Source: Planctomycetota bacterium (lineage in GTDB: Bacteria; Planctomycetota; B15-G4; SIAN01). From it: 64,000 nucleotides of DNA. The notes beneath the pieces are model-generated. The model saw only the letters and a list, made by a program, of their open reading frames with translations, ran no database searches and had not been told where the DNA came from. Each line of letters begins with the position of its first letter. The stretch's first letter is position 1. Location of the stretch: the NCBI GenBank assembly GCA_009691715.1, contig SIAN01000017.1, positions 10,867-74,866 of the forward strand. Reading direction: 5' to 3'. Below are positions 1,484 through 46,979 of the stretch, piece after piece. A program made the translations under genes and the position numbers.

Positions 1484-3583
1484 ATGACCCGAGACGCCGT
1501 CCGCTTGCGCGCCATGGTCGCGCTCGTGCTGTCCTGCGCGGCGGCGCTGCGCTGCAACGCGACGGATCACGATGCTGCAACCAAGCGTTCCACGGAGTCC
1601 ACGATGGCCGTCGAATCGGCGCCGACCGACCTGATCGCCGCCAATCTCGATCCCGCGACCCGCCCCGCGCAGGACTTCTTCCAGTACGCGAATGGCGGCT
1701 GGCTGGCGAGGAACCCGATTCCGGCCAGCGAATCGGCGTGGACGATCGGCCATCTGGTCAACGAAGAGCTCTACCGGATCAAGCGCGAGATCGCGGAGAA
1801 GGCGGCCGCGCAGCTGGCGGCGCCGCGCGGGAGCGACGCGCAGAAGATCGGCGACTTTTGGGCGGCGGCGATCGAACCGGCGACCGCCGAGGCGATCGGC
1901 ATCGCTCCGCTCCAACCGTGGCTCGATCGGATCGCCGCCGTCGCCACTCCGGCCGACGCGATTGGCGTCGCAACCGAGCTGCAGGAGATCGGCGTCGAGG
2001 CGTTCTGGTCGTTTGGCGTCGGACAGGACCAGAAGCAGAGCGACGTGATGGCGGTGATGCTGAGCCAGGGCGGCCTCGGCCTGCCCGAACGCGACTACTA
2101 CTTCAACGCCGAGGAGGGCGTCGCCAAGGCGCGCACGGAGTATCCGAAGCACCTCGCGCGCCTTTTCATGCTGCTCGGCCAGGGAGCGCAAGCGGCCGCG
2201 AGCGCCGGTGATGCTGTGCTGGTCTTCGAGACGGCGCTCGCGCAGGCGAGCAAGCCGCTCGAGGCGCTGCGCGACCCGCACGCGAACTACCACAAGATGA
2301 GCGTGGCGACGTTCCACGAATACGCCCCGCACGTCGAGTGGCGCGCGCTCCTCGATCACCACGGCCTCGCGACGGCGGATGCGCTCATCGTCGGCCAGCC
2401 CGAGTTCTTCGTCGTGCTTGACGCTCTGCTGCAATCGACTCCGGTCGAGACGCTGCGCGCCTACCTCACGGCGCAGTTGCTGCACGAGTACGCCGCCTAC
2501 CTGCCGACGGCCTTCGACCTCGAGCACTTCGCCTTCTTCGGCCGCGAGCTGCAGGGCGCGAAGGAGCAGCGGCCACGCTGGAAGCGCGTGCTCGACGCGC
2601 AGGAGAGCGCGATGGGCATGGTGGTCGGCCGGCTGTTCGTGCAGGACTACTTCCCGGCGCCCACCAAGCAGCGCTACGTCGACATGGTCGAGGCCATCCG
2701 CACGACCTACCGCGAGCACATCGAGTCGCTCGACTGGATGAGCGCGACGACCAAGGAGAAGGCGCTCGCCAAGCTCGCGACCATGAAGAACAAGGTCGGC
2801 TTCCCCGACCGCTGGAAGGACATGAGCGCGCTCGAAGTCGCGCGCGACAGCTTCTGCGCCAACATGGTTCGCGCGGCCCGCTTCGACTTCGCCGACTCGA
2901 TCCAAAAGTTCGGCAAGCCGGTCGATCGCGACGAGTGGGAGATGACGCCGCAGACCTACAACGCCTACTACAACGCGTCCAACAACGAGATCGTCCTGCC
3001 GGCCGGCATCTTCCTGATCCCGGGCCTGAAGGACGCCGACGCCGACGACGCGGTCGTCTACGGCTACGCCGGCGCCAGCACGATCGGCCACGAAATCACC
3101 CACGGCTTCGACGACGAAGGCCGACAGTTCGACGCTGCGGGCAATCTGGTCGACTGGTGGACCGCGGAGGATGAGGCGCAGTTCAAGCGGCGCGCCGCGG
3201 TGATGGTGGCCCAGTTCGACGCCTACGAGCCGCTGCCGGGCCTCCACATCAACGGCGAGGCGACGCTCGGCGAGAACATCGCCGACTTCGGCGGCGTGGT
3301 GCTCGGGCTCGACGCATTCAAGAAGACGGCGCAGTACCGCGAGGGCAAGCCGATCGCGGGGCTGACGCCGACGCAGCGCTACTTCCTCGGCTACGCGCTC
3401 GGCTGGCTCGGCCATCCGCGCGAAGCGCGGCTGCGCCAGGCGCTTCTCTCCGACGTCCACTCGCCGGCCAAGTGGCGGGTGATCGGTCCGATGGTGAACG
3501 TGCCGGAGTTCATGCAGGCGTTCGACGTGAAGCCGGGCGATCCGATGTGGCGCGACGAGGCGGCGCGCGTCAGGATCTGGTGA
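1484..3583 (+). CDS. M13 family zinc metallopeptidase (neprilysin/PepO/ECE-like), secreted
   Basis: Same frame as track ORF 1067..3583, with the start moved to ATG 1484 (MTRDAVRLRAMVALVLSCAAAL, signal-like). Motifs FFQYANGGWL, HEITHGFDDEGRQFD (HExxH) and GENIADFGG. Confidence 0.93.
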   Translation: MTRDAVRLRAMVALVLSCAAALRCNATDHDAATKRSTESTMAVESAPTDLIAANLDPATRPAQDFFQYANGGWLARNPIPASESAWTIGHLVNEELYRIKREIAEKAAAQLAAPRGSDAQKIGDFWAAAIEPATAEAIGIAPLQPWLDRIAAVATPADAIGVATELQEIGVEAFWSFGVGQDQKQSDVMAVMLSQGGLGLPERDYYFNAEEGVAKARTEYPKHLARLFMLLGQGAQAAASAGDAVLVFETALAQASKPLEALRDPHANYHKMSVATFHEYAPHVEWRALLDHHGLATADALIVGQPEFFVVLDALLQSTPVETLRAYLTAQLLHEYAAYLPTAFDLEHFAFFGRELQGAKEQRPRWKRVLDAQESAMGMVVGRLFVQDYFPAPTKQRYVDMVEAIRTTYREHIESLDWMSATTKEKALAKLATMKNKVGFPDRWKDMSALEVARDSFCANMVRAARFDFADSIQKFGKPVDRDEWEMTPQTYNAYYNASNNEIVLPAGIFLIPGLKDADADDAVVYGYAGASTIGHEITHGFDDEGRQFDAAGNLVDWWTAEDEAQFKRRAAVMVAQFDAYEPLPGLHINGEATLGENIADFGGVVLGLDAFKKTAQYREGKPIAGLTPTQRYFLGYALGWLGHPREARLRQALLSDVHSPAKWRVIGPMVNVPEFMQAFDVKPGDPMWRDEAARVRIW

Positions 3584-4967
3584 GTCGCGGCGGAAAGGCG
3601 CGGGGAAGGGCGCGCAGCAGGGCGAGCCAGGTCGCGGGTACGACCGCGTCGAAGTGACCTGGAAACGGGATTTCGCCGATGCCCGATGCCGCGAGCGGCG
3701 CGATCGGCAGCCCGGCGAAGAAGATCGTCGCGGCGGCGCGGCGCACCAACCCCGTGACGCCAACAACGAGCAGTCCGACCAGCACCCACGCGCCGGTCCA
3801 CTGCCGCGACGCCCGCGCCCACGCGCGCACGAATCGCACCCGAGAATCCCCTTCGTCCGCGCGCGGCGGATAGGCGGGCAGGAGCGCTTCGGCGACGGCG
3901 AAGCGATCGAGCGACGCCGACCACGCTTCCACCGCGCGCCGGTGATTGGCGGCGAACGTCGCCGGTGAGATGCACCCGTTGAGCACGTAGTTCACGGGAT
4001 TGCGGCGCTCTAACGCTGACACCATCGACCCGACTGTCAACTTCACGCTTCGCCACGGATCGAGCCAGAGCGCCTGGCGCGCCACGCAACCGAGCAGTTC
4101 GTCGGCCTGCCGTTGGGACAGTCCCTCCTTCTCGCGCAACAAGCGATGGAGCCGCCAACCGGCCTGGGAGACCGCGAATACGTCGACGCCGTTCTCGCGC
4201 GCAAGTCGCTCGATTCGATGCGCTTCGGGCGTGTCGGCCAGCCGCTTCTCCACCGCCGCGACCCGGCAGAACAGGTGGATGCCGTCGCCGTCCACCATTG
4301 TGAACCGGCCGTACTCGAGGTTGTTCCGCGTCAGCACCAGCAGCAACATGGCCAGGAAGCCGCCGAGGAAATGGAGCAGCAGCCGGAGGTGGCGGCGCGG
4401 GCCGGTGCACAGCAACGCAACGACCGCTGCCGCAACCAGCGCGACCCCGGAGCTGCGCTGCGCCATCGCTCCAGCGGCGAGCGCGCCGGCGAGCCACCCG
4501 TGACTTGCGCTGCCGGACCGAAGCGCGCGCACAAACCAGAAGCCTGTCAGCGCGAGCAGGAACGCGAACAGGCTGTCACTCATCGCGCACTGCGCAGACA
4601 GCGAATTCGGCGCATGCAACGAGGCCAGCAAGCTCGCGACGAAACCGACGCGCGGTCGTCCGAGCTGTTCACCGCAGCGCAGCAGCAGCTAGGGGATGGC
4701 GGTCACGCAAAGCTGCTGCAACAGCACCAGCGCCACCATCCGCGCGCCCGCCGGCAGCAGCAGGCAGAGCGCGTCGAGCAGCAACGGGTAGGCCGGGTTG
4801 CGGGTCTGGAACGGGACCTCGAAACCCGCATGCGAAGTGTGGAAAAGGTAGCTGGCCGTGTCGGGGAAGAAGATGCCTCCCAGGCACGACAGCTCGATCG
4901 GCGCAGCAGACAACGCGATCGCGACTGGGAGCGCGCGCCACCGATTGGAGAGTCGCTGTTCGCTCAC
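3570..4967 (-). pseudogene. Multi-pass membrane protein, GT-C (ArnT/PMT-like) glycosyltransferase candidate, interrupted by one in-frame TAG
   Basis: Track ORFs 4689..4967 and 3570..4631 share one frame. The only interruption is TAG at 4691..4689, and the frame stays open: ...LLQQLCVTAIP*LLLRCGEQLGRPRVGFVASLLASLHAPNSLSAQ... The N-terminus has several TM segments (FFPDTASYLF), the middle is soluble and the C-terminus has TM segments. It lies 10 nt downstream of an ArnE-like remnant. Confidence 0.7.
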
Positions 4968-4977
4968 TTGCGTGAAA

Positions 4978-5292
4978 TCATCGGCGTGAAATCATTGCCG
5001 CCGCGAGCCGTGCGAGCAGCAGCCCCGCGACACGCCTCGACGGCAACGCCTCACCGAAGCAGACCCATCCGGCGATCACCGACAGCACCAGCGTGAGCAG
5101 GCAGGAGACCGGCAGCGCGACGGAAAGCTCGAGCCTTGCGAGTGCCTGGAACCACAGCAGTGTCCCGATCGCCAGCAGCCCGTCGCCGGCCCAGATCCAC
5201 GGCGAGCAAAACAGCGCGACGATCCAAGACCGTCCGGTCGCTTGGTCAAGCCGCCTGAGGCCGACTTTCGCCAGCGCCTGCCCCGCGACGCT
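4978..5292 (-). pseudogene. ArnE/ArnF-like (SMR/EamA small 4-TM) protein remnant lacking its N-terminus and start codon
   Basis: The minus-strand frame is open over 4978..5337 but has no ATG/GTG/TTG before the last TM. Translation: SVAGQALAKVGLRRLDQATGRSWIVALFCSPWIWAGDGLLAIGTLLWFQALARLELSVALPVSCLLTLVLSVIAGWVCFGEALPSRRVAGLLLARLAAAMISRR*. From the SVAGQ motif onward it resembles ArnE. The sequence upstream (PGCVRERASQVSPER) is non-hydrophobic and overlaps the start of the + strand gene at 5313. Confidence 0.55.
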
Positions 5293-5312
5293 TCGCTCCG
5301 GGGAGACCTGAG

Positions 5313-5918
5313 ATGCGCGCTCGCGGACACACCCTGGTCAAATCGGCGCTCTCGGTCACGATCTTCGCGGCGGTCGCCGGCGTCGCCTGCCTGATCGCAC
5401 GCGAGACGAGCGGCGCCTTGGCGCAGCAGTTCGACGCGAGCGTGGTGAGGCGCCACGTGAGCGGCACCTCGGCGCTGCTGCTGAACGAGTTCGGCGACGC
5501 CAACGCGACCAACCTCACGATCGATGGGCAATCGGCGCTCGGCGACACCGTCACCTTCGAGCTGCCGCTCGATCAGGTGAACGGCGCAGTCACTTGGCGC
5601 GCGCGCTCGAGCAGCGGCACCGCAGCGCGCGACCTGCCAGGCGGCAGAGCGAGCTACCTCGTCGTCGTCGCCGACGCCGCGCGCACCGACGTCTGCCGGC
5701 TGGTAAGGCGCGCCGTCGACGCGGCTGGGGCGACCGTCGGCGACGACCTCATCTTGGTCGACTCGATCGACGTCCCCGATGCAACGCAGGGCAAGGGGTT
5801 CACCATGACTCGCCAGGGCAACCTGTTGACGATTCGCGCGCGCACGACCCACGCGGTGGCGGGTGGCACTCCGGCACCGACGCACGACCTAGTGATCCGA
5901 TTGCGGAACGGCGGTTGA
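5313..5918 (+). CDS. Hypothetical protein with a degenerate prepilin/pseudopilin-like N-terminus
   Basis: ATG preceded by GGAGA. The N-terminus MRARGHTLVKSALSVTIFAAVAGVACLIA resembles the G/FTLIE hydrophobic pilin leader, but with H and K at the F1 and E5 positions. High GC3. Followed 20 nt later by a PilX-like gene. Confidence 0.75.
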   Translation: MRARGHTLVKSALSVTIFAAVAGVACLIARETSGALAQQFDASVVRRHVSGTSALLLNEFGDANATNLTIDGQSALGDTVTFELPLDQVNGAVTWRARSSSGTAARDLPGGRASYLVVVADAARTDVCRLVRRAVDAAGATVGDDLILVDSIDVPDATQGKGFTMTRQGNLLTIRARTTHAVAGGTPAPTHDLVIRLRNGG

Positions 5919-5938
5919 GGAATCAAAGGAGCATTCTC

Positions 5939-7852
5939 ATGCAACGACACTCGCAGCGCGGTGGCGCGCTGTTCGCGGCGCTGATCGCTACGACTTTCGC
6001 CGCCGGCCTCAGCTGGGCGGCGGTCTCGCTCACCAGCACGCAATGATGTGACGTCGCGCGTTCGCTCGAGTGCCTCGCGGCGCGAGCCGCGGCGGAAGCT
6101 GCCATCCATGACCGACTCGCCTTCATGCGCGACACGATCCGCCTCGATCCGTTCGACCCGATCGGGCAGCTCGACCAGCTCGCGTTCGTCGGTGGCGACC
6201 CGGCGCAGCCGCAAGTCGTCACGTTGGCCACCGACCGATCACTCGCACGCGCGGGCCGGACCTACGGCAGCTACAGCGTTGCCTTCACCACCCGCGTCAA
6301 CGGCGCGGGCCGCGAAGTGACGCTCACTGCCACCGGCTACGTGCCCGATCGCGCGACCGCGCGGGCCAAACAGTCGGTGAGCGTCGACGTCGCGGTCGAG
6401 CCGAGTCGCGTCTTCGACTACTCCTATTTCCTCAACAACTGGGGATGGTTCTACGGCGACACGATCAACGGCTACGGCAACGTGCGCTCGAACGCGCAGT
6501 TCGACGCCGCCGGCTACGAACCCGGCGTCTTCGGGACGCCGCGGTACGACGCGATGTCCCTGATCGATCCGACCCATCCCGATCTCGAGGGCTACCTCGA
6601 CGACAACGAAGACGGGGTGACCGACGGGAGCGATGGCGGGATCTACGCCGGCTGGGACATCGTCGGCGCCACCGAGGTGCGTGGGATGGGAGGGCTGCCC
6701 GAGAACCAGCACGACTTCGTTGAGCAGATGCCGATGCCGAACCTGAACGACCTCGCGTTCTACGCGGCGCGCGCGATCGCCGCGAACGGCAGCCTCGCGA
6801 TCGGCGGAGGACTCAGCGGAACCGGAGCGCCGCTGCCGCCGACCCCGGTCTGCGACGCCGTCCTTGGCAACGAAGTGGGCGAGAAGCAGCACGTGGTACT
6901 CATCGGAACTACCGCGAAGCGGATCCTGCTCTCCGGCTCGGTGGTCGTGCGGGGCGACGTCATCATCAAGGGTGTCGTAAGCGGTCAGGGAACGATCTAC
7001 TCCGGCCGCAACGTCTACGTCGCGCACGACCTCACCTACCTGACCGGGCCGACCTCCTACGCGCCGGCCAGCACGACCGAAACTGATACTGAGACTTGGC
7101 TCGCCGCCAACCGGAGCAAGGACTTCCTCGGCCTGTTCGCCAAGGAGAACGTCGTCCTCGGCAACTTCACCAACAGCACCTGGAAGAGCCACGTCGGTGG
7201 TTGGCTCGCCGACCCGATGAACACGAGCAAGGAAGACGCCGGCGCCGACCAACTGCCCAACACCGCGGCCGGGCGCGACGGCGTGCTCGGGACCGAAGAC
7301 GACGACACGCTCGAGGGTGACGGCATCTTCACCGTCGACTAGTACTCGCAAGCGGACGCCGCTCTCGGCCTGATCCCGGCCGGGAAGAACGTCGGCGACA
7401 CGATCCCGGGCAGCGGCGAGGACACGGACGGCGACGGCGTCTACGACGGCACGATCGGCCTTTCGGCGTTCGATCTTGCGGCCGCACTCGGCCCGACCGC
7501 ATGGGCGGGGAACCTGCCGGCGGGAGTCACCAAGTTTTCGTCGCTCTCGACGACCTTGATGAAGACCTCGATGAAGACCTCGATGAAGACCGTCCACGCC
7601 TCGCTCTACACCAATCACGCCGCTGCGCTGGTCACGCTCGCGTTCGGCTACGACTTCAAGTTGTTCGGATCGATGGTCTCGCGCAACGAGTCGATGATCT
7701 ACGGCACCAATTCGCTGAACCTCTGGCACGATCGGCGCCTCGCCTCCGGCGGGCTGTTCGGCACGATGTTGCCGCAGACTCCGGCGCCGCTGGTCATCCG
7801 GTCGTGGCGCATGCTGGAAAACGACGTCCAAGCCTCCTACGTGACGCCATGA
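5939..7852 (+). pseudogene. PilX/GspK-like minor (pseudo)pilin, large variant, with two in-frame stops (TGA 6044..6046, TAG 7340..7342)
   Basis: RBS AAGGAG at 5925..5930, then ATG at 5939. Three pieces share one frame: 5939..6046 (MQRHSQRGGALFAALIATTFAAGLSWAAVSLTSTQ*), 6125..7342 and 7556..7852. The read-through text is coherent: ...LTSTQ*CDVARSLECLAARAAAEAAIHDRLAFMRD... and ...TLEGDGIFTVD*YSQADAALGLIPAGKNVGDTIPGSGEDTDGDGVYDG... Confidence 0.75.
7552..7593 (+). repeat. 12-bp in-frame tandem repeat (gatgaagacctc, about 3.5 copies) encoding MKTS MKTS MKT
   Basis: Direct reading gives ttgatgaagacctcgatgaagacctcgatgaagaccgt, inside the PilX-like gene. Confidence 0.9.
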
Positions 7853-8337
7853 GCGCCGGCCACCAGCCGACACTTGCCGCCGCGTTCGCGGCGTCGTTCC
7901 TCTGGCTCGGCATCAACGCGATCTCGCTCACGACGCCGGCACAGGAGGAGGGCGATGAGCCGATCCGCCTGCGCGGCAAGACGATCGCGCTGCGCAACGA
8001 ACTCCATCGCGACCCGCCGGGCCTTTCCGGTCTCGAAGCGGGCGGCGACGGCTACCGCGTGGACCTGCCGATCCTGCGCAACGCGCTTGGGAGCGGCGCG
8101 GCAGTCGATCACGCCGAGCTGCATGCGCGGCAGCTCGCGATCCAATCGGGGGCGCGAATCGACCCGCCGGCGCCAGTCGCAGAGCGCGTGATCGAGGTGG
8201 CGGATGTTGCTGCCGGCGATCCGCCGGCAACTCCGGTGAAGATCGGCACGCCGATGCCGTGGATCATCGGATCGCTCGCGCTGCTCGCAACCGGTCTCGT
8301 CCGCCGGTTCACGAGACGCACGCACACCCCGCGGTAG
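7849..8337 (+). CDS. Secreted hypothetical protein with a PEP-CTERM-like C-terminal sorting tail (PMP variant)
   Basis: The ATG overlaps the upstream stop (ATGA). N-terminal signal-like segment MSAGHQPTLAAAFAASFLWLGINAISL. C-terminus ...GTPMPWIIGSLALLATGLVRRFTRRTHTPR, i.e. PxP, then a TM helix, then an Arg cluster. Confidence 0.75.
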   Translation: MSAGHQPTLAAAFAASFLWLGINAISLTTPAQEEGDEPIRLRGKTIALRNELHRDPPGLSGLEAGGDGYRVDLPILRNALGSGAAVDHAELHARQLAIQSGARIDPPAPVAERVIEVADVAAGDPPATPVKIGTPMPWIIGSLALLATGLVRRFTRRTHTPR

Positions 8338-8338
8338 T

Positions 8339-9898
8339 GTGTCGCGTCCTCCAATGGACGACGGCACGAAGCAAGGCACCGACGACTCCCTCCGCCTGAC
8401 CGCGCTGCTCGAGCAGTTCGCCGTCGATCGCACGTCGCTCTACGACCTGCCTGCGGAGCTGCGGCGCCGGTTGCTCGCTGCGTGCGGCAAGCTCTCCGAC
8501 CCGGAGGCGGTCGACTACCGGCGGCTCCGCAAGTCGCTGCGCAAGAAGGACCGCCGCAAGGTCCGCGAGCGCGATCTCGCGACGCTCGAGCAGTCAGCGC
8601 TGCGGCGCGCGCGGAGCGAGGGCAAGGTCGAGAGCGACCTGCTGCCGAAGCACGCGCTGCCGCCGAAGGACGAGACACCGCAGCCGTTGTTCGCGACGGC
8701 AGCCGGTAGGGCCGAATTGCCGCCGCGCAGCACCGCGATCGCGACGACGCTCACTAAGCCGCGCTTCTGCTACGCCTGCAAGGCGCCCTATGTGCAAGTG
8801 CACTTCTTCTACGACGCGATGTGCAACGCCTGCGGGGACCTGAACTTCCGCAAACGCGACGAGCGCTGCGACCTGTCGGGTCGAGTCGCGCTGGTGACGG
8901 GCGGCCGCATCAAGATCGGCCAGGAGATCGTCCGCAAGCTGCTGCGCTGCGGTGCGACCGTGATCGTGACCACGCGCTTCGCCGTCGATGCCGCGCGCCG
9001 TTATTCCGAGCTGCCCGACTTCGTCCGCTTCGCCGATCGACTGCGCGTCTTCGGGCTCGATCTGCGCCACACGCCGAGCGTCGAGCGCTTCTGTGCCGAG
9101 CTCGACGCCACGCTCGAGCGACTCGACTTCATCGTCAACAACGCCTGCCAGACCGTGCGCCGCCCGCCGGCCTACTACGCCCACATGATGGAGGCCGAGC
9201 AGCGCGGCCTCGAGGCGCTGGCGCCTCCGCAGCGCCTGCTCCTCTCGGGTGTCGCTGGCGCGGTGGGGGGCGCGGCGCTCGCTCGCGCTCCCGATCACGC
9301 GGCGGCCGCGGCGCACTCGCAGCTCGCCTGGCACGAGGACGACCGCGCGCCCGCCCACAATCTCTTCCCCGAGCATGCGTACGACGCCGATCGCCAGCAG
9401 ATCGACCTGCGCAAGATGAACAGCTGGCGGCTCAAGCTGCACGAGGTGGCGACGCCGGAGCTGCTCGAGGTGCAACTGGTGAACGCGATCGCGCCCTATG
9501 TGTTGAACGCACGGTTGAAGCCATTGCTGGAGCGGGTGGCGACGGCGGACAAGCACATCGTGAATGTCTCCGCCATGGAGGGGCAGTTCGGTCGCGGGAC
9601 CAAGACCGACCGCCATCCCCACACCAACATGGCCAAGGCGGCGCTCAACATGATGACGCGCACGTCGGCGCAGGATTACCGCCGGTCGGGCATCCACATG
9701 AACAGCGTCGACACCGGCTGGGTGACCGACGAGGATCCGGCCGAAATCGCGTTGCGCAAGGAGCGCGAGGGGTTCCAGCCGCCGCTCGACGCCATCGACG
9801 GCGCCGCGCGCGTGTGCGATCCGATCATCTCCGGCTTCCTCACCGGCCAGCACGTGAGCGGGCTGTTCTTGAAGGACTACGTTCCGACTGTCTGGTGA
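8339..9898 (+). CDS. SDR-superfamily oxidoreductase with a ~180-aa N-terminal extension containing CxxC...CxxC
   Basis: Rossmann motif VTGGRIKIGQEI, then NNAC, then ...NMAKAALNMM. The extension carries FCYACKAPY...MCNACGDLN. An alternative start is ATG 8354 (MDDGTKQ). Confidence 0.85.
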   Translation: MSRPPMDDGTKQGTDDSLRLTALLEQFAVDRTSLYDLPAELRRRLLAACGKLSDPEAVDYRRLRKSLRKKDRRKVRERDLATLEQSALRRARSEGKVESDLLPKHALPPKDETPQPLFATAAGRAELPPRSTAIATTLTKPRFCYACKAPYVQVHFFYDAMCNACGDLNFRKRDERCDLSGRVALVTGGRIKIGQEIVRKLLRCGATVIVTTRFAVDAARRYSELPDFVRFADRLRVFGLDLRHTPSVERFCAELDATLERLDFIVNNACQTVRRPPAYYAHMMEAEQRGLEALAPPQRLLLSGVAGAVGGAALARAPDHAAAAAHSQLAWHEDDRAPAHNLFPEHAYDADRQQIDLRKMNSWRLKLHEVATPELLEVQLVNAIAPYVLNARLKPLLERVATADKHIVNVSAMEGQFGRGTKTDRHPHTNMAKAALNMMTRTSAQDYRRSGIHMNSVDTGWVTDEDPAEIALRKEREGFQPPLDAIDGAARVCDPIISGFLTGQHVSGLFLKDYVPTVW

Positions 9899-9958
9899 GG
9901 CGACGCCTCCGCAGTACCATCGCACGCCCTTCAGTATCTGCTCCGCGAACCAGGTTGG

Positions 9959-12844: not shown

Positions 12845-14724
12845 CTACTGCAACGTCACGCTCACGAGGTTGGTGATCGCGCCCTGCTTCGGCTTGTAGC
12901 TGTCGACGACCAGCGACTGCAGGTAGCCGGTGAAGCCGATCAAGGTCGGGTCGGAAGGAATGTCGATCGCGATCGTGCGCGCGCCATTGGCACCGATCGG
13001 CCCGCGATCGAGCAGGACTGCGGTCACGAGGTCGATCCCGAACGTCCCGAACGGCGGCAGCGGGAAGCTGCCGGTGCCGGTACTGGCCCAGATCCAGGCG
13101 TCGGCGCCCTGCGTTCCAGTGCTGTCCCACTCGAGGTCGTAGCCATCGGGCGCGCCGCCGTTCTCGATCCCGACCGCGCGCACCGTGACGTTCGCGAGGT
13201 CGCTCCAATCGATCGTCGAGCGGCCGTCGATCTCGGCGCCGCTCGTGACCAATCCGCTGACGTCGCGCCAGAATCCCTGGTCACGTCCGGCAAGGACCGG
13301 CACCCCATTGCCAGCGCCACCGACCAGCGGCACCACGGTGTTCCAGGTCGACGAGGTCGACGAGGTCGATCCCGGCGCCGCGAACGACCCGTCCACCGAA
13401 AGCTCGAAACGGTAGTCGTCGTCGGTCGACGGCAGCACCGTCCGGTAGCGCACCTTGGCGACGACCTGCGTCAGCATCCCGACCGGCGTCGCATCGAAGC
13501 CCGACAGGCGCACTTCGCGGTTTCCGGCCGGCAACACCGCGCCGAAGTCGTCCTCGACCAGTGCGTCGGTGAGGTTTGACGCGCCACCACCCACATCGGT
13601 GGCGATCGTCGCGAAGCGGCTGCCGATCCGCGCGAGGAAGCCGAAGTTGCGCGTCTCGGTGGTGGCGCTCGCGGTCACGCCACCGAGTCCCTGCCAGACC
13701 TTCTCCTCATGCAGGTCGTACCCGCGCTTCTTCGGATGGATCTTGTCGAGCCCGAAGAACTGGCAGATGAGCGCATCCGCGCCGAGCTTCGTGCCGGTCG
13801 CGGGATCCTCGTGCGAGTAGTCCGGCCAGATCTCGGCCACGGCGACGCGGCGGCGTTGGCCCCACGCAACATCGCGCAACACCTGATTCCACACCGCTCC
13901 CCACTCGTTGTGGAACGCGTCGTTGCCGTCCTCGTTGTCGTAGACCGTGTTCAGCACCACGTCGCAGTCGGGCAGCTCGGAGAGCAGCGTCGACAGCAGC
14001 TCCTGCAGGTTCTGCCGGGCGACAACCAGGTTCGCGGCTGTCTGCGCGTGGTGCCATCGTCGGAGAGGAAGTCGTTGCCGCCGATCGAGATCGAGACCAG
14101 CTGCGGCGCCAGCGCGATGGCATCGAAGATCGTCCCGCTCGCCGCCGGGTCGAGCAGATCGTTGGTCTCGTAACCGAGTACCGCCTGCTTCAATAGCGTC
14201 GCCGATCCAGCGCGATCGAGCTTCGCAATGGTGAGCGGCTTCACGTAATCGTTCGCGCCGCTCGGCGAATCGCACAGGTTGAAGCCGTACGCGATCGAGT
14301 CGCCGAGCGCGACATGCAGCAGCGGCGACCCGGGCGAGGAGGCGCGCAGGTGACCGACCAGGAAGTCGGCGACGGCGGGCCGACGCCGTCCTTGCGGCCA
14401 AGCGGGGATCGGATCGGCGTCGGCGCCAAGGTCCTGGAACGACAGGCGCCAATTCGCGCCCGGCAGCGCTTCGAGGACGTACTGCAGGCCAGCGGTCCCC
14501 GCGAACGTGTAGCGACCGTCGGCGCCGGAGAGCACCGTCTGGTCGAAGTTGCCGTCCTCGCCATAGAGCGTGACCGGGACGTTCCCGAGGAGCGGCTCGC
14601 CGGCGTCACGCACGCCGTCGCGGTTGAGGTCATGGAAGAGCGTGCCGTCGACGGTCTGCGCGCGCAGCGAAGCGACCGCGAGAATGAGCAGGAACGGCAG
14701 CGGAAGGGTGACGAGGTGTTTCAC
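12845..14724 (-). pseudogene. Secreted SGNH/GDSL hydrolase with an N-terminal SdrD-B-like domain, frameshifted near 14050
   Basis: GTG at 14724 with GGAGA upstream. The N-terminal part reads MKHLVTLPLPFLLILAVASLRAQTVDGTLFHDLNRDGVRDAGE...HVALGDSIAYG...SISIGGNDFLSDDG in the frame of track ORF 13951..15222. The sensible continuation (AQTAANLVVARQNLQELLSTLLSELPDCDVVLNTVYDNEDGNDAF...) is in the frame of ORF 12845..14452. Beyond the junction, each frame reads as Arg-rich nonsense. Confidence 0.75.
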
Positions 14725-23694: not shown

Positions 23695-23806
23695 CGATCC
23701 TCCAGCACCCGGCGCACGCCGGCGGTCGAGCACTCAAGGCGCGTCATCGTACGCAACCTGGCTCGGTGCGTAGACCGTCTCGAAGGAGTGGGCTACCGTT
23801 CCCACG

Positions 23807-26348: not shown

Positions 26349-26927
26349 CTCCCTCGCCGAGTGACGCGTTGAGGAATCCGCAGAACAGCCCGCCATTGAC
26401 GGGCGGGAGCGCGTCCCGATTGACCATGTCGGACGCGATCGCCTCATCGCGACGGGATCCCAGTATTGGCCGAGGCGCAGGATGCGACCGCCGCGATCGA
26501 GCACGGCCGCCGGCTGCGCGAAGCCGCCCGCTTGTTTGCCGGCGCAGATGTAGATGCCGCCCTCGTAGCAGCCAGTGAAAAGATCGACCACACCATCGCC
26601 CGTCAGATCCTCGAACTGCGGATTGAGTCCGATGCATCACCAGTTGTGGATCGCGATCTCCTGGCCCTCGGCCTGCAGGAAGCCGCGCGCCTCGAACTTC
26701 GGAGCGCTCGCGCTACCGACGTTGGCGTAGTGCGCGAGCGTGCCCTTGAAGTTGCCGACGAGCAGGTCGTGTTTGCCGTCGCCATTGAGGTCATGGAACG
26801 ACGGCCCTGCGTGGGCGAGCTCGTCGCCGGTGTCGATCCAGGCGTCGCCGGCCTTCAAGCGGACGGGAGGGGCGAGTTCGCCGCCGCCGAGGCCGAACCA
26901 TGGGACGACGATCAACGTGACAAACAT
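26329..26927 (-). pseudogene. Small FG-GAP/VCBS-repeat protein with an in-frame TGA (26639..26637) and a probable frameshift near 26455
   Basis: MFVTLIVVPWFGLGGG...HDLNGDGKHDLLVGNFKG...EIAIHNW*CIGLNPQFEDLTGDGVVDLFTGCYEGGIYICAGKQ...LGQYWDP all reads in one frame. After that point the frame runs on as Arg-rich antisense of the EEP gene. The frame of track ORF 26329..26640 gives RRDEAIASDMVNRDALPPVNGGLFCGFLNASLGE and a stop. Confidence 0.6.
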
Positions 26928-33424: not shown

Positions 33425-34566
33425 GCGGCAGCCTTCCGCCGCCCGCCCGCCGTGGCACCCTGAGCGCCTCGGCTCGGCGCTGCTGCTCGCCGCTCTGGCC
33501 ACGATCGCGATCGCCGGCGACCGCGGCTGACGCGGTCGCCCGTTGTAGCGGCTCGTGCGCGACATCGCCCACGAAGGCCCCAACGCCGCGGACAGCGGGC
33601 ATCTGACCCGCGACTACTACCGCGGACTGCTCGGCGATTCGGGCGAAGTGCGCGACGGCCTTCCGCTCGATCTCGCGCGGATGCTGCTGCGCGCCGGCGA
33701 GGATTTGGAGAAGGTCGAGCCGTTCTTCCGCAGCGAGATCTCGCGCCCGGCCGGAGCTTCGACTTCGCCGGCGTCGAGGTCGCAGTCAACTCGTTCGGAC
33801 TGCGCGACGACGAATGCGCGCCGCTGCCGGCGGCCGGCACCTTCCGGCTCGCGCTGGTCGGCGCCTCGAACGACATGGGCTGGGGCGTTGCCCACGCCAA
33901 GACCTATGCGACGCGCCTCGAGCACCACCTTTCCGCCGCGGCCGCGTTCGCCTGCCCGGTCGAGGTGCTGAACTTCAGCATCCCGGGCTACACGATGCTG
34001 GAGCAGCTCTGGTCGATCGATGAGCGCGTCGTTCCGCTTGCGCCGCACGCAATCCTCGTCAGCGTCACTCTGCCGGAGCTGCGCGCCGAGCTCGTCGCGC
34101 GACTCGCGGCACGGGTGCCTGCCGGACGCGACCTCGGCTTCGACTTCGTGCGCGACGTCGTGGCGCGCTCCGGCGCAACAGCGGCCGACGACTCGACCGT
34201 CGCGATCCGCAAGCTTCGTCCCTTCACCGACCGCCTGGTCGCGTCAATCTTCGCGGCGCTGGCGCAGCGGCAACGCTCGCTGCGAATCCCGATCGTGGTG
34301 CTGCTGCTCAAGCTTTAGCCCGGCGACGACGTCGCCCAACCGCTGCGCGCCGCAGCCGTGGCCGCCGAGTCGGCCGGGCTCCCGATCGCCCGTGCCTTCA
34401 CCGCCTGCGCGTCGTTCGCCGCCACCGAGCTCTACCTCGATTCCCGCGCCGATCACCACCCCCGCGCCGCCGCGCTCGCCGCGCTCGCCACCGCGCTCGC
34501 CGCCGGATTCCTGCGCCTCCCGACGTTGCGCGCCGTCGCGCCGTCGCGCCGTCGGGAAAGAAATGA
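33421..34566 (+). pseudogene. SGNH-type partner of the MBOAT gene (AlgJ/AlgX/DltD/PatB-like), heavily decayed
   Basis: Probable GTG at 33421 (GTGA overlap with the MBOAT stop). The coherent text switches frames: LGSALLLAALATIAIAGDRG*RGRPL*RLVRDIAHEGPNAADSGHLTRDYYRGLLG...EPFFRSEI, then a frame change near 33750, then PGRSFDFAGVEVAVNSFGLRDDE...FRLALVGASNDMGWGV...IPIVVLLLKL*PGDDVAQPL...ELYLDSRADHHPRAAALAALATALAAGFL. Stops are at 33528, 33546 and 34316. The natural stop has been displaced by an 8-bp repeat expansion. Confidence 0.65.
34530..34553 (+). repeat. 8-bp perfect tandem repeat (gcgccgtc x3) at the 3' end of the SGNH pseudogene
   Basis: Read directly: gcgccgtcgcgccgtcgcgccgtc. With two copies the frame would read LRAVAPSGKK* (TGA 34564..34566). 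With three copies it runs on into the next gene. Confidence 0.9.
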
Positions 34567-34672: not shown

Positions 34673-35137
34673 ATGATCGGTCGCAAGATTCTCTCGGCAG
34701 CGACGTTGCTCGGACTCGCGACGCTTGGCGCCGCGGCAAAAGGAGACAGCGGCGCGGAGAACTCTCCGCCCTCGGTCACGCTGTCGGAGACGACCGTCGG
34801 CGGCAAGCCGGCGCTGTGCGTTGACGTGGTCGATCCCGACGGTGCCGCGGACCTGCTCAGCTTCGGCTTCGAGTACACGCTCGACACCGGCATCGTCTAC
34901 AAGAACACCCTCGCGATCACGCTCTGGGTGTACGGGAAGAAGGGCATGAGCTCGAGCGACATCGAGGACGGCAAGCGCGTCTGCTTCACCAAGCTGCCGG
35001 GCAACGTGGTGAGCCTCAAGGTCACGGCGATGGACTTCGACTGGCACCAGGTGATCGCATCGGCCGCAGTCCCTTCGAGCATCACCGCGGGCCAGCCGAA
35101 GTTCGGCGTGGTGAAGGCGCCACCCAAGAAGAAATAG
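34673..35137 (+). CDS. Small secreted protein of unknown function, copy A (154 aa)
   Basis: AGGGAG RBS before ATG 34673. Signal peptide MIGRKILSAATLLGLATLGAAA. Similar to the protein encoded at 45732..46178. Confidence 0.85.
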   Translation: MIGRKILSAATLLGLATLGAAAKGDSGAENSPPSVTLSETTVGGKPALCVDVVDPDGAADLLSFGFEYTLDTGIVYKNTLAITLWVYGKKGMSSSDIEDGKRVCFTKLPGNVVSLKVTAMDFDWHQVIASAAVPSSITAGQPKFGVVKAPPKKK

Positions 35138-41269: not shown

Positions 41270-41272
41270 CGT

Positions 41273-43179: not shown

Positions 43180-43265
43180 GAGTGCGCGGCTCCTCGAGCG
43201 ATGAAGTGCGGGAGGATAGCGGGGTAACGTTCCGCGGCCTGCAATCCAAGACGAGGCCAGCGATC

Positions 43266-45467
43266 ATGCGCGCGACGTTCCTGCTCACCACGTTGAACCT
43301 GTTTTGCACGCTTGCGCCCTTCGCGGCCGGACAAGGCAACCAGCAGGGCCCGCCACCCGGCCTCAGTCGCGAGCAGACTTGGCCGGCGCCGAGCGCGGCG
43401 GACTGGAAGAAGCCCTGCCTGCTCACCTTCCAGCGCAACTGGGAGGACGCCGTCGCGGTCGCACAGGAGCAGGGCAAGGCGATCCTGATCTGCGTCAACA
43501 TGGACGGCGAGATCGCGAGCGAGCACTACGCCGGCATCCGCTACCGCGACCCGGAGGCGGCGAAGCTCTATGCGCCCTACGTCTGCGTGCTGGCGACGAC
43601 CTACCGCCACACGCCGCGCGACTTCGACGAGGCCGGCGAGCGGATCCTCTGCCCGCGCTTCGGCAGCGTGACCTGCGGCGAGCACATCGCGATCGAGCCG
43701 TTCCTGTTCGAGAAGTTCATGGAAGGGCAGCGGGTCGCGCCGCGCCACATCGCAATCGAACTCGATGGCGACGGTAAGGGTGGCACTGAACTTCACGACG
43801 TCTTCTACGCGTGGGATGTGAAGTCGGTCCTTGACCAGATCGCGACCACGATCGCGAAGCGGCCGCCGAGCAAACCGGTGGTGCGCGGCGATCGGCCGCT
43901 GGTGGCGCGCGTCGCGAGCCGTGACCAGGCCGATCGCCTCGCGGTGGAGAGTGCCTTCAAGCAGGGCGATGCCGCTGCCCGGAAGAGCCTGATGGAGGCC
44001 GCCCTCGCGTCGCCGCAGAGCGCGCCGGTCGATCTGCTGCGCCTGGCCTTGCTCGGTTTTGATCGCGAGCTCGCCGCCAAGGCACGCGCGGGTCTTGCGC
44101 AAAGCGTGTCGCCGGCGGCAGTCCCGCTGATCGAGGAGGCCCTGCGCGGGCCGCTCGACGGGGCCGAGAAAGCGGCGCTGGTCGCCGCGCTCGAACGTCT
44201 TGGCGGCGATTCGCCGCGCGCGCGCACGCTGGCCGTCGTCCATCAGGGCCTCACGCTGCGATCGAGCGCGCTCGACGTCGCGGCCTGGACCAAGACGCCC
44301 GATGAAGCCGCCCGCACCGCGCGAGCGGCGTTGCGTCAGGCCCGCCTCACCGACCAGGACGCGATCCTGCGTGGCGGCGACGCGACCGCGCACCTCGAAC
44401 TGGCGGAAGCACTGCTCGATCAGTCGAGCCGTTGCGATCGCGACGACGATGCGCGGCTGCTGATCGCCGACGCCACCACGATCGGCGCGAAGGCGCTGAG
44501 CCTCGGCGCCCACGGCTACCGCGCCTCCGCGCTGCAGGCGATCACGGCGCGCCTCGCGGGGGACGAAGCCAGGGCACGCACGCTCGCCGAGCAGGCGATC
44601 ACCGCCGGCGCGCCGGACGACCCGACCGAAGCGGGGGCCCTCGACGTGCTCGAACTGTTCGCGCGGCAGCGGGAGTTGGCGCTCGGTCAGGCCCTGCGCG
44701 AGCGCAAGCCGTGGCCGCCGCAGTGGCTCACCGACCTGAACGCCGCCTACGGCGCGATGGTCCGCCATCCGCTGGCGAGCGACCGGCATGTGGCGACCCA
44801 CTACGACGTGCTCGACTGGCTCGGAGCGGGCCAGCCGGCGACGCGCTTCCTCGGCGAGGGACTGGCGCGCTTCCCCGATTCCGACGCGCTGCACGAACGG
44901 CTGCGCGCGCGCCTGGTGAAGGAGCGCGGCGCGAGCGGCTTGCTGGAGGCGTATTCGCTGCGCGTCGCTGCCGCGCCGGACTCCGCTGCCGCCCACTCCT
45001 ATGCCGGCTACGGTGCACTGGTCGCCGCCGAGTTCGAACGCCGCGCCGGCCGCGCGCCCGCCGCAGTGGCCGCCTACCAACGTGCGATCGAGTGGTACGA
45101 GCGCGCCATCGCGCTGGCGCCCGACGATCGTGGCGCCGGCGACCACTTCGTCGCGCTCGCGCTGGCGGGCGAGGCACGCGTCGCATTCGAGGCGCAGGAC
45201 TTTGCCGGCGCAGTCGCCGGGCTCGAAGCGAGCTTCCAACGGTCACCCGATTCCGCAGCGACGCAGGACGGCTTGAACGTGTCGCCGGTCGACAGCGCGA
45301 AGATGGTGCTCGGCCAATTGCAGCTCGTCGCGAAGGGCGACCACGCGGACGCGACCGCAACGGGAGAACTGGCGAAGCGCCTCGACACCGCGCTCGCAGC
45401 CCTCGATCCGAAGCTGCTCGAACTCCCGGCCTATGAGCGAGGGGTTCCACGCGCCAGCGGTGGGTGA
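43266..45467 (+). CDS. Secreted thioredoxin-fold (DUF255-like) protein with a long helical/TPR-like C-terminal region
   Basis: Signal peptide MRATFLLTTLNLFCTLAPFAAGQ. WEDAVAVAQEQGKAILICVNMDGEIASEHY...CPRFGSVTCGEH. Same frame as track ORF 43077..45467. Confidence 0.8.
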   Translation: MRATFLLTTLNLFCTLAPFAAGQGNQQGPPPGLSREQTWPAPSAADWKKPCLLTFQRNWEDAVAVAQEQGKAILICVNMDGEIASEHYAGIRYRDPEAAKLYAPYVCVLATTYRHTPRDFDEAGERILCPRFGSVTCGEHIAIEPFLFEKFMEGQRVAPRHIAIELDGDGKGGTELHDVFYAWDVKSVLDQIATTIAKRPPSKPVVRGDRPLVARVASRDQADRLAVESAFKQGDAAARKSLMEAALASPQSAPVDLLRLALLGFDRELAAKARAGLAQSVSPAAVPLIEEALRGPLDGAEKAALVAALERLGGDSPRARTLAVVHQGLTLRSSALDVAAWTKTPDEAARTARAALRQARLTDQDAILRGGDATAHLELAEALLDQSSRCDRDDDARLLIADATTIGAKALSLGAHGYRASALQAITARLAGDEARARTLAEQAITAGAPDDPTEAGALDVLELFARQRELALGQALRERKPWPPQWLTDLNAAYGAMVRHPLASDRHVATHYDVLDWLGAGQPATRFLGEGLARFPDSDALHERLRARLVKERGASGLLEAYSLRVAAAPDSAAAHSYAGYGALVAAEFERRAGRAPAAVAAYQRAIEWYERAIALAPDDRGAGDHFVALALAGEARVAFEAQDFAGAVAGLEASFQRSPDSAATQDGLNVSPVDSAKMVLGQLQLVAKGDHADATATGELAKRLDTALAALDPKLLELPAYERGVPRASGG

Positions 45468-45558
45468 GCGAACGGCCGGCGTTCGACTGCGCCGCAACTG
45501 CGACGGCGATTGCCACCGGATTCCGCGTTGACACCGCGTTGGCCGCAATGCTCGATCC

Positions 45559-45590
45559 GTCACAATTCACGTGACATGTCACAGTGTCAC
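45559..45590. promoter_or_regulatory. Cluster of GTCAC/GTGAC half-sites including a perfect 12-bp palindrome; candidate operator
   Basis: gtcacaattcacgtgacatgtcacagtgtcac contains TCACGTGA (45567..45574) and GTGACATGTCAC (45571..45582). It lies about 140 nt upstream of ATG 45732 in a 264-nt intergenic region. Confidence 0.4.
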
Positions 45591-45731
45591 GAACCGTCGT
45601 TGACGCCGCCCTTCGGCGCGGCGAGTAATGGGCGTGGAATCACAGCCCAGGCGCCCGGACGGTCGATCTGCCGATGTGCGGCGGTGCCCGCCGATCGGGC
45701 GGAGTCACGATTCCTCGCAGGAGAACACGAC

Positions 45732-46178
45732 ATGTTCGGACACAAGATCCTCACCGCTGCGGCGCTGATCGGAGTGGCGTCGATCGGCTCGGTGGCACGT
45801 GGAGATCACGACGACTCCAATGTGGCGCCGGTGGTCTCGATCAGCGAAGGCACGATCGGCGGCAAGGCGGCGTTGTGCGTGCAGGTCACGGACGCCGATG
45901 GCGCCGCCGACATCCTCGGCACCGGCTTCGAGTACACGCTTAGCAATGGACAGGTCTATTCGAGTCCGCTGCGGATCCTGCTTTGGGTCATCGGCAAGAA
46001 GGGGATGGTCACGAGCAACATCGACGGTGGCAAGCAGATCTGCTTCACCAAGCTGCCCGGCAACGTCGTCTCGTTGCGGGCGACCGGGATCGACACCCAA
46101 TTCCATTTTGTCTCGGCCTCGGCGTCGGTCCCGCCTGCGATCACCGCGGGCAACGCGACCTTCGGCATCAAGCGGTAA
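45732..46178 (+). CDS. Small secreted protein of unknown function, copy B (148 aa)
   Basis: GCAGGAG RBS before the ATG. Signal peptide MFGHKILTAAALIGVASIGSVA. Shares GGK.ALCV.V.D.DGAAD.L..GFEYTL...LWV.GKKGM..S.I..GK..CFTKLPGNVVSL with copy A. Uses a TAA stop. Confidence 0.85.
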   Translation: MFGHKILTAAALIGVASIGSVARGDHDDSNVAPVVSISEGTIGGKAALCVQVTDADGAADILGTGFEYTLSNGQVYSSPLRILLWVIGKKGMVTSNIDGGKQICFTKLPGNVVSLRATGIDTQFHFVSASASVPPAITAGNATFGIKR

Positions 46179-46206
46179 GAGCCACCAGCGAGCGGTACTG
46201 AAAAGC

Positions 46207-46235
46207 AGCGGGCATCCGGCGCACGGGTGCCCGCT
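46207..46235. terminator. Hairpin between convergent genes, possibly a bidirectional terminator
   Basis: 8-bp stem agcgggca / tgcccgct with an inner ccg/cgg extension. An A4 run lies on the 5' side (+ strand), which is a T4 run after the hairpin for the minus-strand gene. Confidence 0.5.
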
Positions 46236-46242
46236 TCCGCAT

Positions 46243-46979
46243 TCATGCCTCCGCACACCGGTTTGCTCAGGAGGCCAAAGCCCACCGCCAGCGTCTGGCA
46301 GTCGACCGGCACGAGGTCGCTCTCAGCGACGGTCACGTCGGCCGGAACCGGGTTGTGGGGCAGGAACGTCGCGGTCGTGGTCACCCGCTGGACGAGAGTC
46401 CAGTCGCTCGAGAACCAGCTCGAGGCATCGCGGTAGGTGCGGCCCGTGCCGGCGACGGCGAGGAACTCGGAGGCGACGAATCGGGCGAGCGAAGCTGGGC
46501 TCCACACGGCGGTTCGCCTGACGCGAGGCCGGCCTGAAGGCTCAACGGTCTAGCGCGTGGAGCGCTGCGGCGCCCTCCGCGTCCGCGGCCATCGCCTCAC
46601 CGTCGACCGGCTCTGGACGTCGCCAGAGGTCGTTCGCCCGCGCCAACACCGCGACTGCGGCCGGACCCATCGTCTGCAGCCGTCGTTCGAGTTCCAACAG
46701 CACCTCGCGCGACGAGCTTCCCGGCCACGCGGCGTTGACGACTTGCGAGCGCCCGCGACACGGCCTCGCGACCAACGCGCGTTCGAGCGCGGCCGGATAG
46801 CTGTGGTCCGGATCGGTCGCACCGAGCCCGAAGGTGAACGAGTCGCCGACGCAGAGCACGGCGCACGGCTCGCCCACGCGCAAGTCGCCGTCGCGATCGT
46901 GCGCCACCCACGACACAATCGCGTACCCGAGCTGAAGCGCAAGTTCGAGCAGCAGCGTCGGCACGAGCAGCGCAAGCAT
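46243..46979 (-). pseudogene. SGNH/GDSL hydrolase, truncated or frameshifted
   Basis: ORF 46542..46979 holds blocks I-III only (VLCVGDSFTFGLG; AAWPGSS; LARANDLW) and stops after 145 aa. High-GC3 coding text continues in another frame from about 46549 (TVEPSGRPRVRRTAVWSPASLARFVASEFLAVAGTGRTY...FLPHNPVPADV...). That frame has no stop before the hairpin. A third frame supplies TGA at 46245..46243. Confidence 0.55.

Follow-up and report, generated by a model that had tools for sequence, protein, structure and literature searches.

The disrupted genes in a 64-kb stretch of Planctomycetota DNA form a cluster of pseudogenes that is largely real and mostly ordinary, and one of the stop codons counted among their lesions is most probably a selenocysteine codon. 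The stretch (64,000 nt of contig SIAN01000017.1, assembly GCA_009691715.1; hereafter the window) had previously been annotated from its letters alone, and this first-pass annotation proposed that eight genes for envelope or surface proteins had been inactivated by 11 in-frame stop codons and at least five frame changes. We believe, with a probability of about 0.85, that the broken genes and gene remnants are genuine, fairly recent products of ordinary mutation, and that the TGA at 26637, in a gene for a small secreted FG-GAP protein, is an ancestral selenocysteine (Sec) codon. The most interesting content of the window is this conserved UGA together with a downstream hairpin that resembles a bacterial selenocysteine insertion sequence (bSECIS).

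The proposed history of the window is as follows. Mutation would have inactivated seven to eight genes, all non-essential and coding for exported or membrane proteins, and two further genes would survive as remnants. By this account, 10 nonsense substitutions arose, and at least four indels, including a tandem duplication of 8 bp, shifted the reading frame. Larger events would be a deletion of ~1.1 kb, the truncation of one gene at its 3' end, and a rearrangement in which a small EamA-like gene lost its 5' end. Dead genes would then have gone on collecting hits, so that lesions cluster. In intact FG-GAP orthologues, the UGA would be read as Sec, helped by a SECIS-type hairpin 13 nt downstream.

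Lesions in the window and their origin

The window has a base composition of ~70% G+C, and the nearest protein matches of its genes are from uncultured Planctomycetota. PSCyt1 and PSCyt2 domains, which are hallmarks of Planctomycetota, occur among its genes, and DUF1501 and PSD1 genes are present on adjoining contigs. Scans of the 64 kb for tRNA genes and Rfam families found none of either.

Ten of the 11 in-frame stop codons stand as lesions. All 11 (seven TAG, four TGA, and no TAA) are present at the coordinates and on the strands first reported, and the one that does not stand, TGA 26637, is conserved in every orthologue examined. Three of the five proposed frame changes were confirmed, near 14050, ~33440, and ~33745; the one placed near 26455 instead marks where a ~1.1-kb deletion joined its flanks, and that at 46550/46260 was not demonstrable. 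The 8-bp repeat expansion is real, with three copies at 34529-34554. Analysis of G+C at third codon positions (GC3) by frame gave continuous coding-phase runs, in agreement with the claim that the same frame goes on after the stops, and GC3 is still 0.83-0.93 in the broken pieces, consistent with lesions that are fairly recent. No internal stop was found in the remaining 38-39 genes (49.6 kb), which are clean, as had been described.

The interruptions were seen against full-length homologues for the genes encoding a ~630-aa anchored protein, a lipoprotein-like protein, an MBOAT-like membrane protein, the partner of the latter, and the FG-GAP protein. For a GT-C glycosyltransferase gene and two SGNH/GDSL esterase genes, single-gene status was judged from Pfam domain coverage. 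We infer that the lesioned genes have lost their functions. Weighing against this, the GT-C and MBOAT-like genes carry one TAG each, and low-level readthrough or a downstream restart may still yield some product from them.

The lesions are clustered in few genes. The 13 point lesions first counted were confined to 6 of 47 genes, whereas random placement would have hit 11.2 (P = 6e-5); a frameshift found later at the 5' end of the partner gene is a fourteenth and adds no further gene. Six of the lesions are in the partner gene, while three stops interrupt the lipoprotein-like gene and two interrupt the 630-aa gene. This clustering fits dead genes that keep gathering hits. Bacterial pseudogenes that arise by nonsense, frameshift, or deletion and then acquire secondary lesions have been catalogued in many genomes, and those in the window are similar in having multiple lesions per gene, a codon bias that is kept (indicating recency), and a deletional bias (the 1.1-kb deletion and the remnants). 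They differ from typical cases in their high density (7-8 pseudogenes and 2 remnants in ~47 genes of a presumably free-living bacterium) and in that no insertion sequence elements are involved in the window. In a lake bacterium with a presumed free-living lifestyle, ~15-20% disrupted genes in 64 kb is a large proportion. If such a rate holds genome-wide, it would point to ongoing genome reduction or a shift in lifestyle; if the disruption is local, it would mark a dispensable region of surface-modification genes.

The losses might reflect selection against surface genes, for example in escape from phage or grazers, beyond relaxed selection. Two observations favor this explanation. All of the affected products are membrane, lipid-anchored, or secreted proteins, as the first-pass annotation had emphasized, and the FG-GAP selenoprotein gene seems to have been disabled twice independently, by a deletion in the window and by a TAG in its nearest relative (see below). 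However, most of the intact genes in the window also encode envelope or exported proteins, so the bias toward the envelope is weak. The intact exported and membrane proteins include PSCyt proteins, two M13 peptidases, two FG-GAP/ASPIC proteins, the products of a MoxR-DUF58-VWA operon, and ABC, MacB, HlyD, and ZnuA transporters. We regard selection-driven loss as unlikely, though it is the strongest of the alternatives to ordinary mutation under relaxed selection.

The spectrum of stop codons can be accounted for by codon usage alone. We calculated the expected mix of stops from the codon usage of 38 intact genes, using single substitutions and a range of transition and GC>AT biases. The expected proportions were 0.60-0.65 TAG, 0.18-0.27 TGA, and 0.13-0.18 TAA, and the observed ratio was 7:3:0. 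The probability of no TAA in 10 stops was 0.14-0.25, and the absence of TAA, which had been attributed to transitions, therefore requires no particular mutation spectrum. The expected C>T and G>A changes were not found either. At six sites the homologous codon is one step from the stop, and all six changes would be transversions (TGC>TGA, TAC>TAG twice, TCG>TAG, AAG>TAG, and GAG>TAG). Three other stop sites are two or more steps from the homologous codon, and for 6044 alone the alignment is with Arg. These comparisons are weakly suggestive of an origin of the stops by transversion; the inference of ancestral codons is weak because the homologues are just 57-66% identical.

Wholesale reassignment of stop codons is excluded because TGA and TAG end intact genes, in two cases precisely at the end of a Pfam domain. 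The intact genes terminate with 31 TGA, 5 TAG, and 1 TAA codons, such that TAG and TGA together account for 36/37, and in the M13 peptidase and DEAD helicase genes termination at TAG is exactly at the Pfam domain end. The first-pass annotation had named recoding or suppression as the reading that would replace gene inactivation; it applies to TGA 26637, but not to the use of TAG and TGA in general.

It is very improbable that the other interrupted genes still make protein because TAG, TGA, or both are read as sense codons. Several observations could be taken to support such recoding: coding signatures persist after every stop; the two TAGs of the lipoprotein-like gene are opposite Tyr and its TGA is opposite Cys, both near-cognate identities; an in-frame TAG in the FG-GAP gene of the sister lineage L061 is followed by well-conserved sequence; and one TGA is, in all likelihood, truly a recoding site. 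Nonetheless, the same genes also have frameshifts, deletions, and stops of both kinds, the mix of stops equals the neutral expectation, intact genes terminate at TAG and TGA as described above, and there is no tRNA gene in the window. The near-cognate identities do not help to decide, since the single-nucleotide neighbors of stop codons are the near-cognate codons and the aligned residues do not separate mutation from readthrough. Systematic reading of TAG as Tyr was considered and dropped; other TAGs align with Ser, Lys, Glu, and His.

For practical purposes, errors of sequencing or assembly can be excluded, because the same lesions were obtained when two runs were assembled independently and are also present in ENA gene calls. 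By exact-sequence matching, the same genes were recovered in ENA assembly ERZ1305449 and in Logan assemblies of SRR8561390 and SRR8561391, which are freshwater metagenomes from Lake Baikal. We judged reproducibility from assembled contigs and gene calls (Logan and ENA). The Logan contigs from both runs were 99.7-100% identical to the window, with few single-nucleotide polymorphisms (SNPs), and contained nine of the stops (4689, 6044, 7340, 18599, 19724, 19754, 33528, 33546, and 34316). Three indels (near 33440, near 33745, and near 34529) and the 46.5-kb region were likewise reproduced, without gaps in the alignments. Contig L001, corresponding to 3082-8338 of the window at 99.7% identity, has the stops at 4689, 6044, and 7340 and differs from the window by two SNPs and one unit of a 12-bp repeat. 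L027 and L028, one from each run, have the stops at 18599, 19724, and 19754, with 2-3 SNPs each relative to the window; L029 and L030, from the two runs, gave gap-free coverage from 33013 onward; and L031 corresponds to 43833-49331 with 100% identity. The ENA gene calls for ERZ1305449 contain the same split open reading frames (ORFs), including the frameshift at 14050 and the stop at 32327. No longer, intact allele of a split ORF at ≥90% identity was found in the assemblies searched. Comparison with an independent assembly, which had been suggested as a check on the lesions, thus reproduced them, and the earlier argument that they are not random error holds. Artefacts of a single low-quality metagenome-assembled genome (MAG) would be compatible with the origin of the window in a metagenome-derived contig and with the different copy number of the 12-bp repeat between assemblies, but hardly with the same lesions in two runs (SNPs apart) and in the ENA calls, or with their restriction to 6 genes (P = 6e-5) and absence from 49.6 kb of neighboring coding sequence.

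There is also a negligible probability that what look like interrupted ORFs are in fact separate small genes in the same frame by chance: gene callers do annotate the pieces separately, and the two-ORF layout of the FG-GAP gene is kept in all relatives, but single full-length homologues span both sides of the interruptions, Pfam domains are cut by the stops and by a frameshift, and the FG-GAP segment from the TGA to the next possible start is a conserved repeat that appears to be under purifying selection.

A conserved UGA and SECIS-like hairpin in the FG-GAP gene

The TGA at 26637 was found in the same position in all FG-GAP orthologues examined. The window contains the 5' 40% (157 codons) of this gene, at 26457-26927 on the minus strand, with the candidate Sec codon at 26637-26639 in the motif W-U-C. 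Among the homologues retrieved with the small FG-GAP ORF, one set of gene calls ended without exception in '...NW', and another started just downstream. In the DNA of these relatives there was one continuous reading frame, ...N-W-TGA-C-I-G-L-x-P-Q..., within an FG-GAP repeat. Intact orthologues are 351-438 aa and have a signal peptide. Current annotation, in which NCBI has a 99-aa 'hypothetical protein' call, likewise cuts the gene in two.

We aligned 19 loci from a metagenome scan with the window and with its nearest relative, contig L061, giving 17 distinct sequences. (The scan was seeded with a 3-sequence alignment; a first 12-sequence alignment was too divergent.) TGG-TGA-TG[C/T] was in frame in 17/17 distinct sequences, which have 50-87% identity and come from many environments, and the TGA was always followed by Cys and a conserved FG-GAP repeat. 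In the 45 nt after the TGA, there were 66 minority letters at third codon positions, compared to 23 at first and 17 at second positions. This concentration of variation at third positions argues that the segment after the TGA is translated.

A hairpin downstream of the TGA is conserved by compensatory changes. The bSECIS-like hairpin (26607-26623, minus strand) has 6 bp and a 5-nt loop, AGUUC, and starts 13 nt after the UGA. Across the 17 sequences, 97% of the pair cells were standard pairs, in contrast to 25-47% in slid controls. Compensatory changes were found at two pairs, one changing from G-C to A-U and the other occurring as A-U, G-C, or G-U. The loops in the orthologues are AGUUC, AGGUG, or AGUUU, giving the pattern A/G-G-U/G-U/A-N. 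In the window, the stem has a G.A mismatch, which is the sole break of pair 21-29 in the alignment. The minimal SECIS of Escherichia coli fdhF has a spacer of ~11 nt and a 17-nt stem-loop with G23 and U24 in the loop, and is bound by SelB. The FG-GAP hairpin is similar to it in being short, in starting 13 nt after the UGA, and in having GU in a 5-nt apical loop.

Based on the conservation of TGG-TGA-TGY in 17 orthologue sequences and the covarying hairpin downstream, we conclude that TGA 26637 is most probably a Sec codon and not a lesion, as it had been called. Some observations weigh against this conclusion. The sole uninterrupted homologue found, P0188 (353 aa), has W-W-S in place of W-U-C. 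No homologue with Cys in place of Sec was found, in search output that was dominated by large FG-GAP repeat proteins and in which Cys forms may be missed. The hairpin had no Rfam match; when three orthologous loci were scanned permissively against Rfam, the matches were at chance level. The folding energy of the hairpin in single sequences was no better than that of shuffled sequences, in a GC-rich context, and its conservation has to be read with the overlap of the stem with constrained codons in mind. No tRNA gene was found in the window or in the 19 orthologous loci.

We think it probable that these orthologues constitute an undescribed family of selenoproteins: secreted FG-GAP beta-propellers of ~350 aa with an invariant Trp-Sec-Cys, widespread in uncultured Planctomycetota of lakes, soils, and sediments, whose gene is split by annotation into two hypothetical ORFs and is being lost in the clade of the window. 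No NCBIfam model matched the family. The terms FG-GAP, VCBS, propeller, and Planctomycetes were not found in a 2026 review of the prokaryotic selenoproteome, nor were FG-GAP, VCBS, and Planctomycetes in the BSepDB and deep-Sep papers. Sec-insertion machinery has been reported in other Planctomycetes (PMC4807772), and UC, CU, and UGC motifs occur in listed bacterial selenoprotein families (PMC13188914). The FG-GAP proteins resemble bacterial selenoproteins that depend on UGA and a SECIS in that the UGA is conserved in frame among orthologues, and they resemble the listed families in that the Sec adjoins a Cys, which suggests a redox or metal-binding dyad. Unlike the classical selenoproteins, they would be beta-propellers with a signal peptide, without the thioredoxin fold or another classical oxidoreductase fold, and no Cys form was found. 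If Sec is confirmed, an extracytoplasmic beta-propeller would join a catalogue dominated by thiol-oxidoreductase folds, and it would point to selenium use in environmental Planctomycetota. More generally, comparative data are needed before an in-frame TGA is taken for a lesion; one of the four TGAs here is a conserved and probable recoding site.

The gene neighborhood of a distant family member may provide a hint of function. In L039 (938-2586) and in L040, a distant member (50% identical) with the motif V-W-U-C-T, the gene adjoins two Sulf_transp genes of the YeeE/YedE type and a GAF-domain gene. YedE-family transporters are linked to selenium metabolism, and by analogy these neighbors may bear on the role of the selenoprotein.

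The copy of the FG-GAP gene in the window is probably dead regardless of its Sec TGA, because a deletion took the 3' 60% and the hairpin gained a mismatch. The remnant in the window is 77% identical to residues 16-160 of a 354-aa orthologue (on contig L032), and there is no homology beyond 26457. L061 (from ENA ERZ27280297) is fully syntenic and has 87-89% DNA identity. When its DNA was aligned with that of the window, positions 1927-3023 of L061 had no counterpart there, which corresponds to the ~1.1-kb deletion. In L061, this stretch encodes the last 60% of the selenoprotein and the greater part of a 177-aa Polyketide_cyc2 protein. The region 26354-26457 (minus strand) contains the deletion junction, at about 26433-26457, and a 79-bp remnant of the 3' end of the SRPBCC (Polyketide_cyc2) gene (26354-26432); the junction is what had been taken for a frameshift near 26455. 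The loss appears to be recent, since the 77% identity of the remnant to the L032 orthologue falls within the range for intact neighbors (59-84%).

The L061 copy has its own interruption. Its Sec TGA and hairpin are intact, and there is an in-frame TAG at 2387-2389 (codon 317), where other orthologues have Glu; the sequence after this TAG is well conserved. The TAG could be either a second, independent inactivation or a site of readthrough. Judging from the two alignments, the FG-GAP gene appears to be in the process of being lost independently in two sister lineages, that of the window and that of L061.

Because three of the four TGAs adjoin a Cys codon, Sec was considered for all four. It was rejected for TGA 6044, which is opposite Arg in relatives. 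It was judged unlikely for TGA 33528, which is opposite His in the homologue and lies in a multiply broken gene, and for TGA 18599, which is opposite Cys in the single homologue, in a gene that has two TAGs and for which there was no comparable hairpin evidence.

The other disrupted genes and their neighbors

The most heavily decayed gene is the second of a pair. The first of the pair (32114-33424, plus strand) encodes a multi-pass membrane protein that is MBOAT-like by motif only, and has TAG 32327-32329 at codon 72. The second, the partner gene (33421-34565, plus strand), is weakly SGNH-like (a full-length match with E = 0.076) and has six lesions. An intact, syntenic pair is present on a contig of a Planctomycetota MAG (L004), with 64% identity for the MBOAT-like homologue and ~55% for the partner, which aligns with the window in two frames. 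The MBOAT-like homologue aligns through the stop at 32327, where it has Ser (TCG), and the C-termini coincide; the ENA calls split this gene into 71 aa and 334 aa.

From its 5' end, the partner gene has a frameshift (~33425-33455), two stops (TGA 33528-33530 and TAG 33546-33548), a deletion that breaks the frame (~33735-33755), a third stop (TAG 34316-34318), and an 8-bp unit in triplicate (34529-34554). The L004 residues at the three stops are His (33528), Lys (AAG; 33546), and Glu (GAG; 34316). The GTG start overlaps the upstream stop codon (GTGA; ATGA in L004) and is out of frame with the body of the gene, hence the 5' frameshift. The 8-bp unit, CGCGCCGT, is repeated 3.2 times, and the expansion removes the natural stop of the gene. 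In a two-copy version, the stop would be 7 codons after the motif LRA, and in the L004 homologue it is 10 codons after.

The membership of the membrane protein in the MBOAT family is a lead, not a result. Neither its ORF nor the intact L004 homologue matched any Pfam family, even at E ≤ 10, and none was found in NCBIfam or among PDB sequences, so that the original label has no support there. MBOAT O-acyltransferases occur with SGNH/AlgX-like partners in pairs of the AlgI/AlgJ/AlgX and DltB/DltD types. The pair in the window is similar in that the multi-pass protein has an 'FWRRINxYW' motif and a conserved His, and in that the membrane-protein gene is translationally coupled to a gene for a single-pass, periplasmic, weakly SGNH-like partner. 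It differs in that the membrane protein has no significant Pfam, NCBIfam, or PDB sequence match.

The lipoprotein-like gene (18548-20242, plus strand) belongs to a rare family and is interrupted by TGA 18599-18601, TAG 19724-19726, and TAG 19754-19756. Its sole homologue among 5.8 billion proteins is P0122 (619 aa; 57% identity over 100% of the reconstructed ORF), in which the residues opposite the three stops are Cys (TGC), Tyr (TAC), and Tyr (TAC). The reconstruction is 43 aa and 14 aa shorter than P0122 at two places. Searches of PDB and NCBIfam and lenient searches of Pfam gave no match for the protein. P0122 has a canonical lipobox (L-A-G-C, then G-C-C); the window has L-G-G-S-G-C-TGA at 18590-18601, with Ser opposite the lipobox Cys. 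The lipidation signal of this gene may itself be degraded.

The gene for the ~630-aa protein (5939-7852, plus strand), an N-terminally anchored Planctomycetota protein, has TGA 6044-6046, TAG 7340-7342, and a 12-bp repeat. There were 369 homologues, and those among the matches listed (>100) were 613-657 aa and covered 92-100% of the reconstructed ORF. In the closest of them, TGA 6044 is opposite Arg and TAG 7340 is opposite His or Tyr. The protein begins with MQRHSQRGGALFAALIATTF... and has a hydrophobic segment there. It had been called pilin-like; there was no Pfam, NCBIfam, or PDB sequence match, and the label remains a guess. The 12-bp tandem repeat, GACCTCGATGAA x3.3 at 7552-7591, is in frame, encodes KTSM units, and adds 8 aa relative to all homologues. 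The Logan assembly of SRR8561391 has one unit fewer, so the number of copies differs either between assemblies or within the population.

The operon around the 630-aa gene is rearranged in the window. In relatives, it has genes for proteins of 106-131, ~210, ~630, ~190, ~580, and ~319 aa. The window lacks the first of these genes and has an inverted pair of genes, GT-C and EamA-like, in its place. Farther along, the 162-aa and 587-aa genes are separated by an inserted SDR (adh_short) gene (window 8354-9898).

The inverted pair consists of a pseudogene and a remnant. The GT-C (PMT_2-type) glycosyltransferase pseudogene (3570-4967, minus strand) is split by TAG 4689-4691 into pieces of 92 aa and 337/372 aa, and the split ORFs are identical in the Logan and ENA assemblies. 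The Pfam PMT_2 match (E = 1.7e-9; 38.5 bits, compared to a gathering cutoff of 26.1) takes in profile positions 6-154 of 160 and crosses the TAG, bearing out the GT-C label. The remnant (4978-5337, minus strand) is that of an EamA/ArnE-like small membrane protein gene truncated at its 5' end. The stop-to-stop ORF has 119 codons, and the first ATG, GTG, or TTG is codon 84, as expected from the earlier description of an ArnE-like remnant without a start. Its partial match to the EamA profile is to the C-terminal half alone (74-134 of 135; E = 2.6e-5, which is under the gathering score). At this site, relatives hold the 106-131-aa first gene of the operon, upstream of a 201-aa gene, and a search across the window did not find it. 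The absence of both the 5' half of the remnant and the first operon gene suggests a rearrangement breakpoint at about 5310-5340. The PMT_2 match and the adjoining half-EamA ORF resemble a GT-C of the ArnT/PMT_2 type with a small EamA-like (ArnE/F-like) partner. The pair differs from ArnT/ArnE-F systems in that the match to EamA does not reach the threshold, both members are disrupted, and there are no other Arn pathway genes nearby.

Both SGNH/GDSL esterase genes have Lipase_GDSL_2 matches, in keeping with their labels. The first (12845-14724, minus strand) is a pseudogene that has an N-terminal SdrD_B domain and a frameshift of the 1-nt class at ~14040-14056. The profile is matched over its full length (1-178 of 178; E = 2e-16) only when both frames are joined, and the gene appears in the ENA calls as two pieces of 257 aa and 371 aa. 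The second (46542-46979, minus strand) is a 145-aa 5' fragment with SGNH blocks I-III, and its C-terminal half is missing. Since it matches the first half of the profile alone (1-83 of 178; E = 2e-10) and neither the three downstream frames nor two joined reconstructions recovered the rest, it is a truncated fragment with no demonstrable frame changes.

Two intact, paralogous genes for small secreted proteins, at 34673-35137 (plus strand; 154 aa) and 45732-46178 (plus strand; 148 aa), each adjoin a decayed SGNH-like gene. The proteins have the motifs 'GGK[PA]ALCV' and 'CFTKLPGNVVSL' in common, and neither matched a Pfam or NCBIfam family.

Two observations concern intact genes near the FG-GAP remnant. 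A perfect 15-bp tandem repeat, TGCCGCCGCTGTCTC x3.3 at 27151-27200, is in frame near the 5' end of an intact gene for a 778-aa FG-GAP/ASPIC protein. The DEAD helicase and ABC transporter genes flank a gene for a 569-aa protein with only a weak Cu2_monoox_C match (22024-23733, minus strand). This gene is missing from the otherwise syntenic L032, which points to a lineage-specific insertion.

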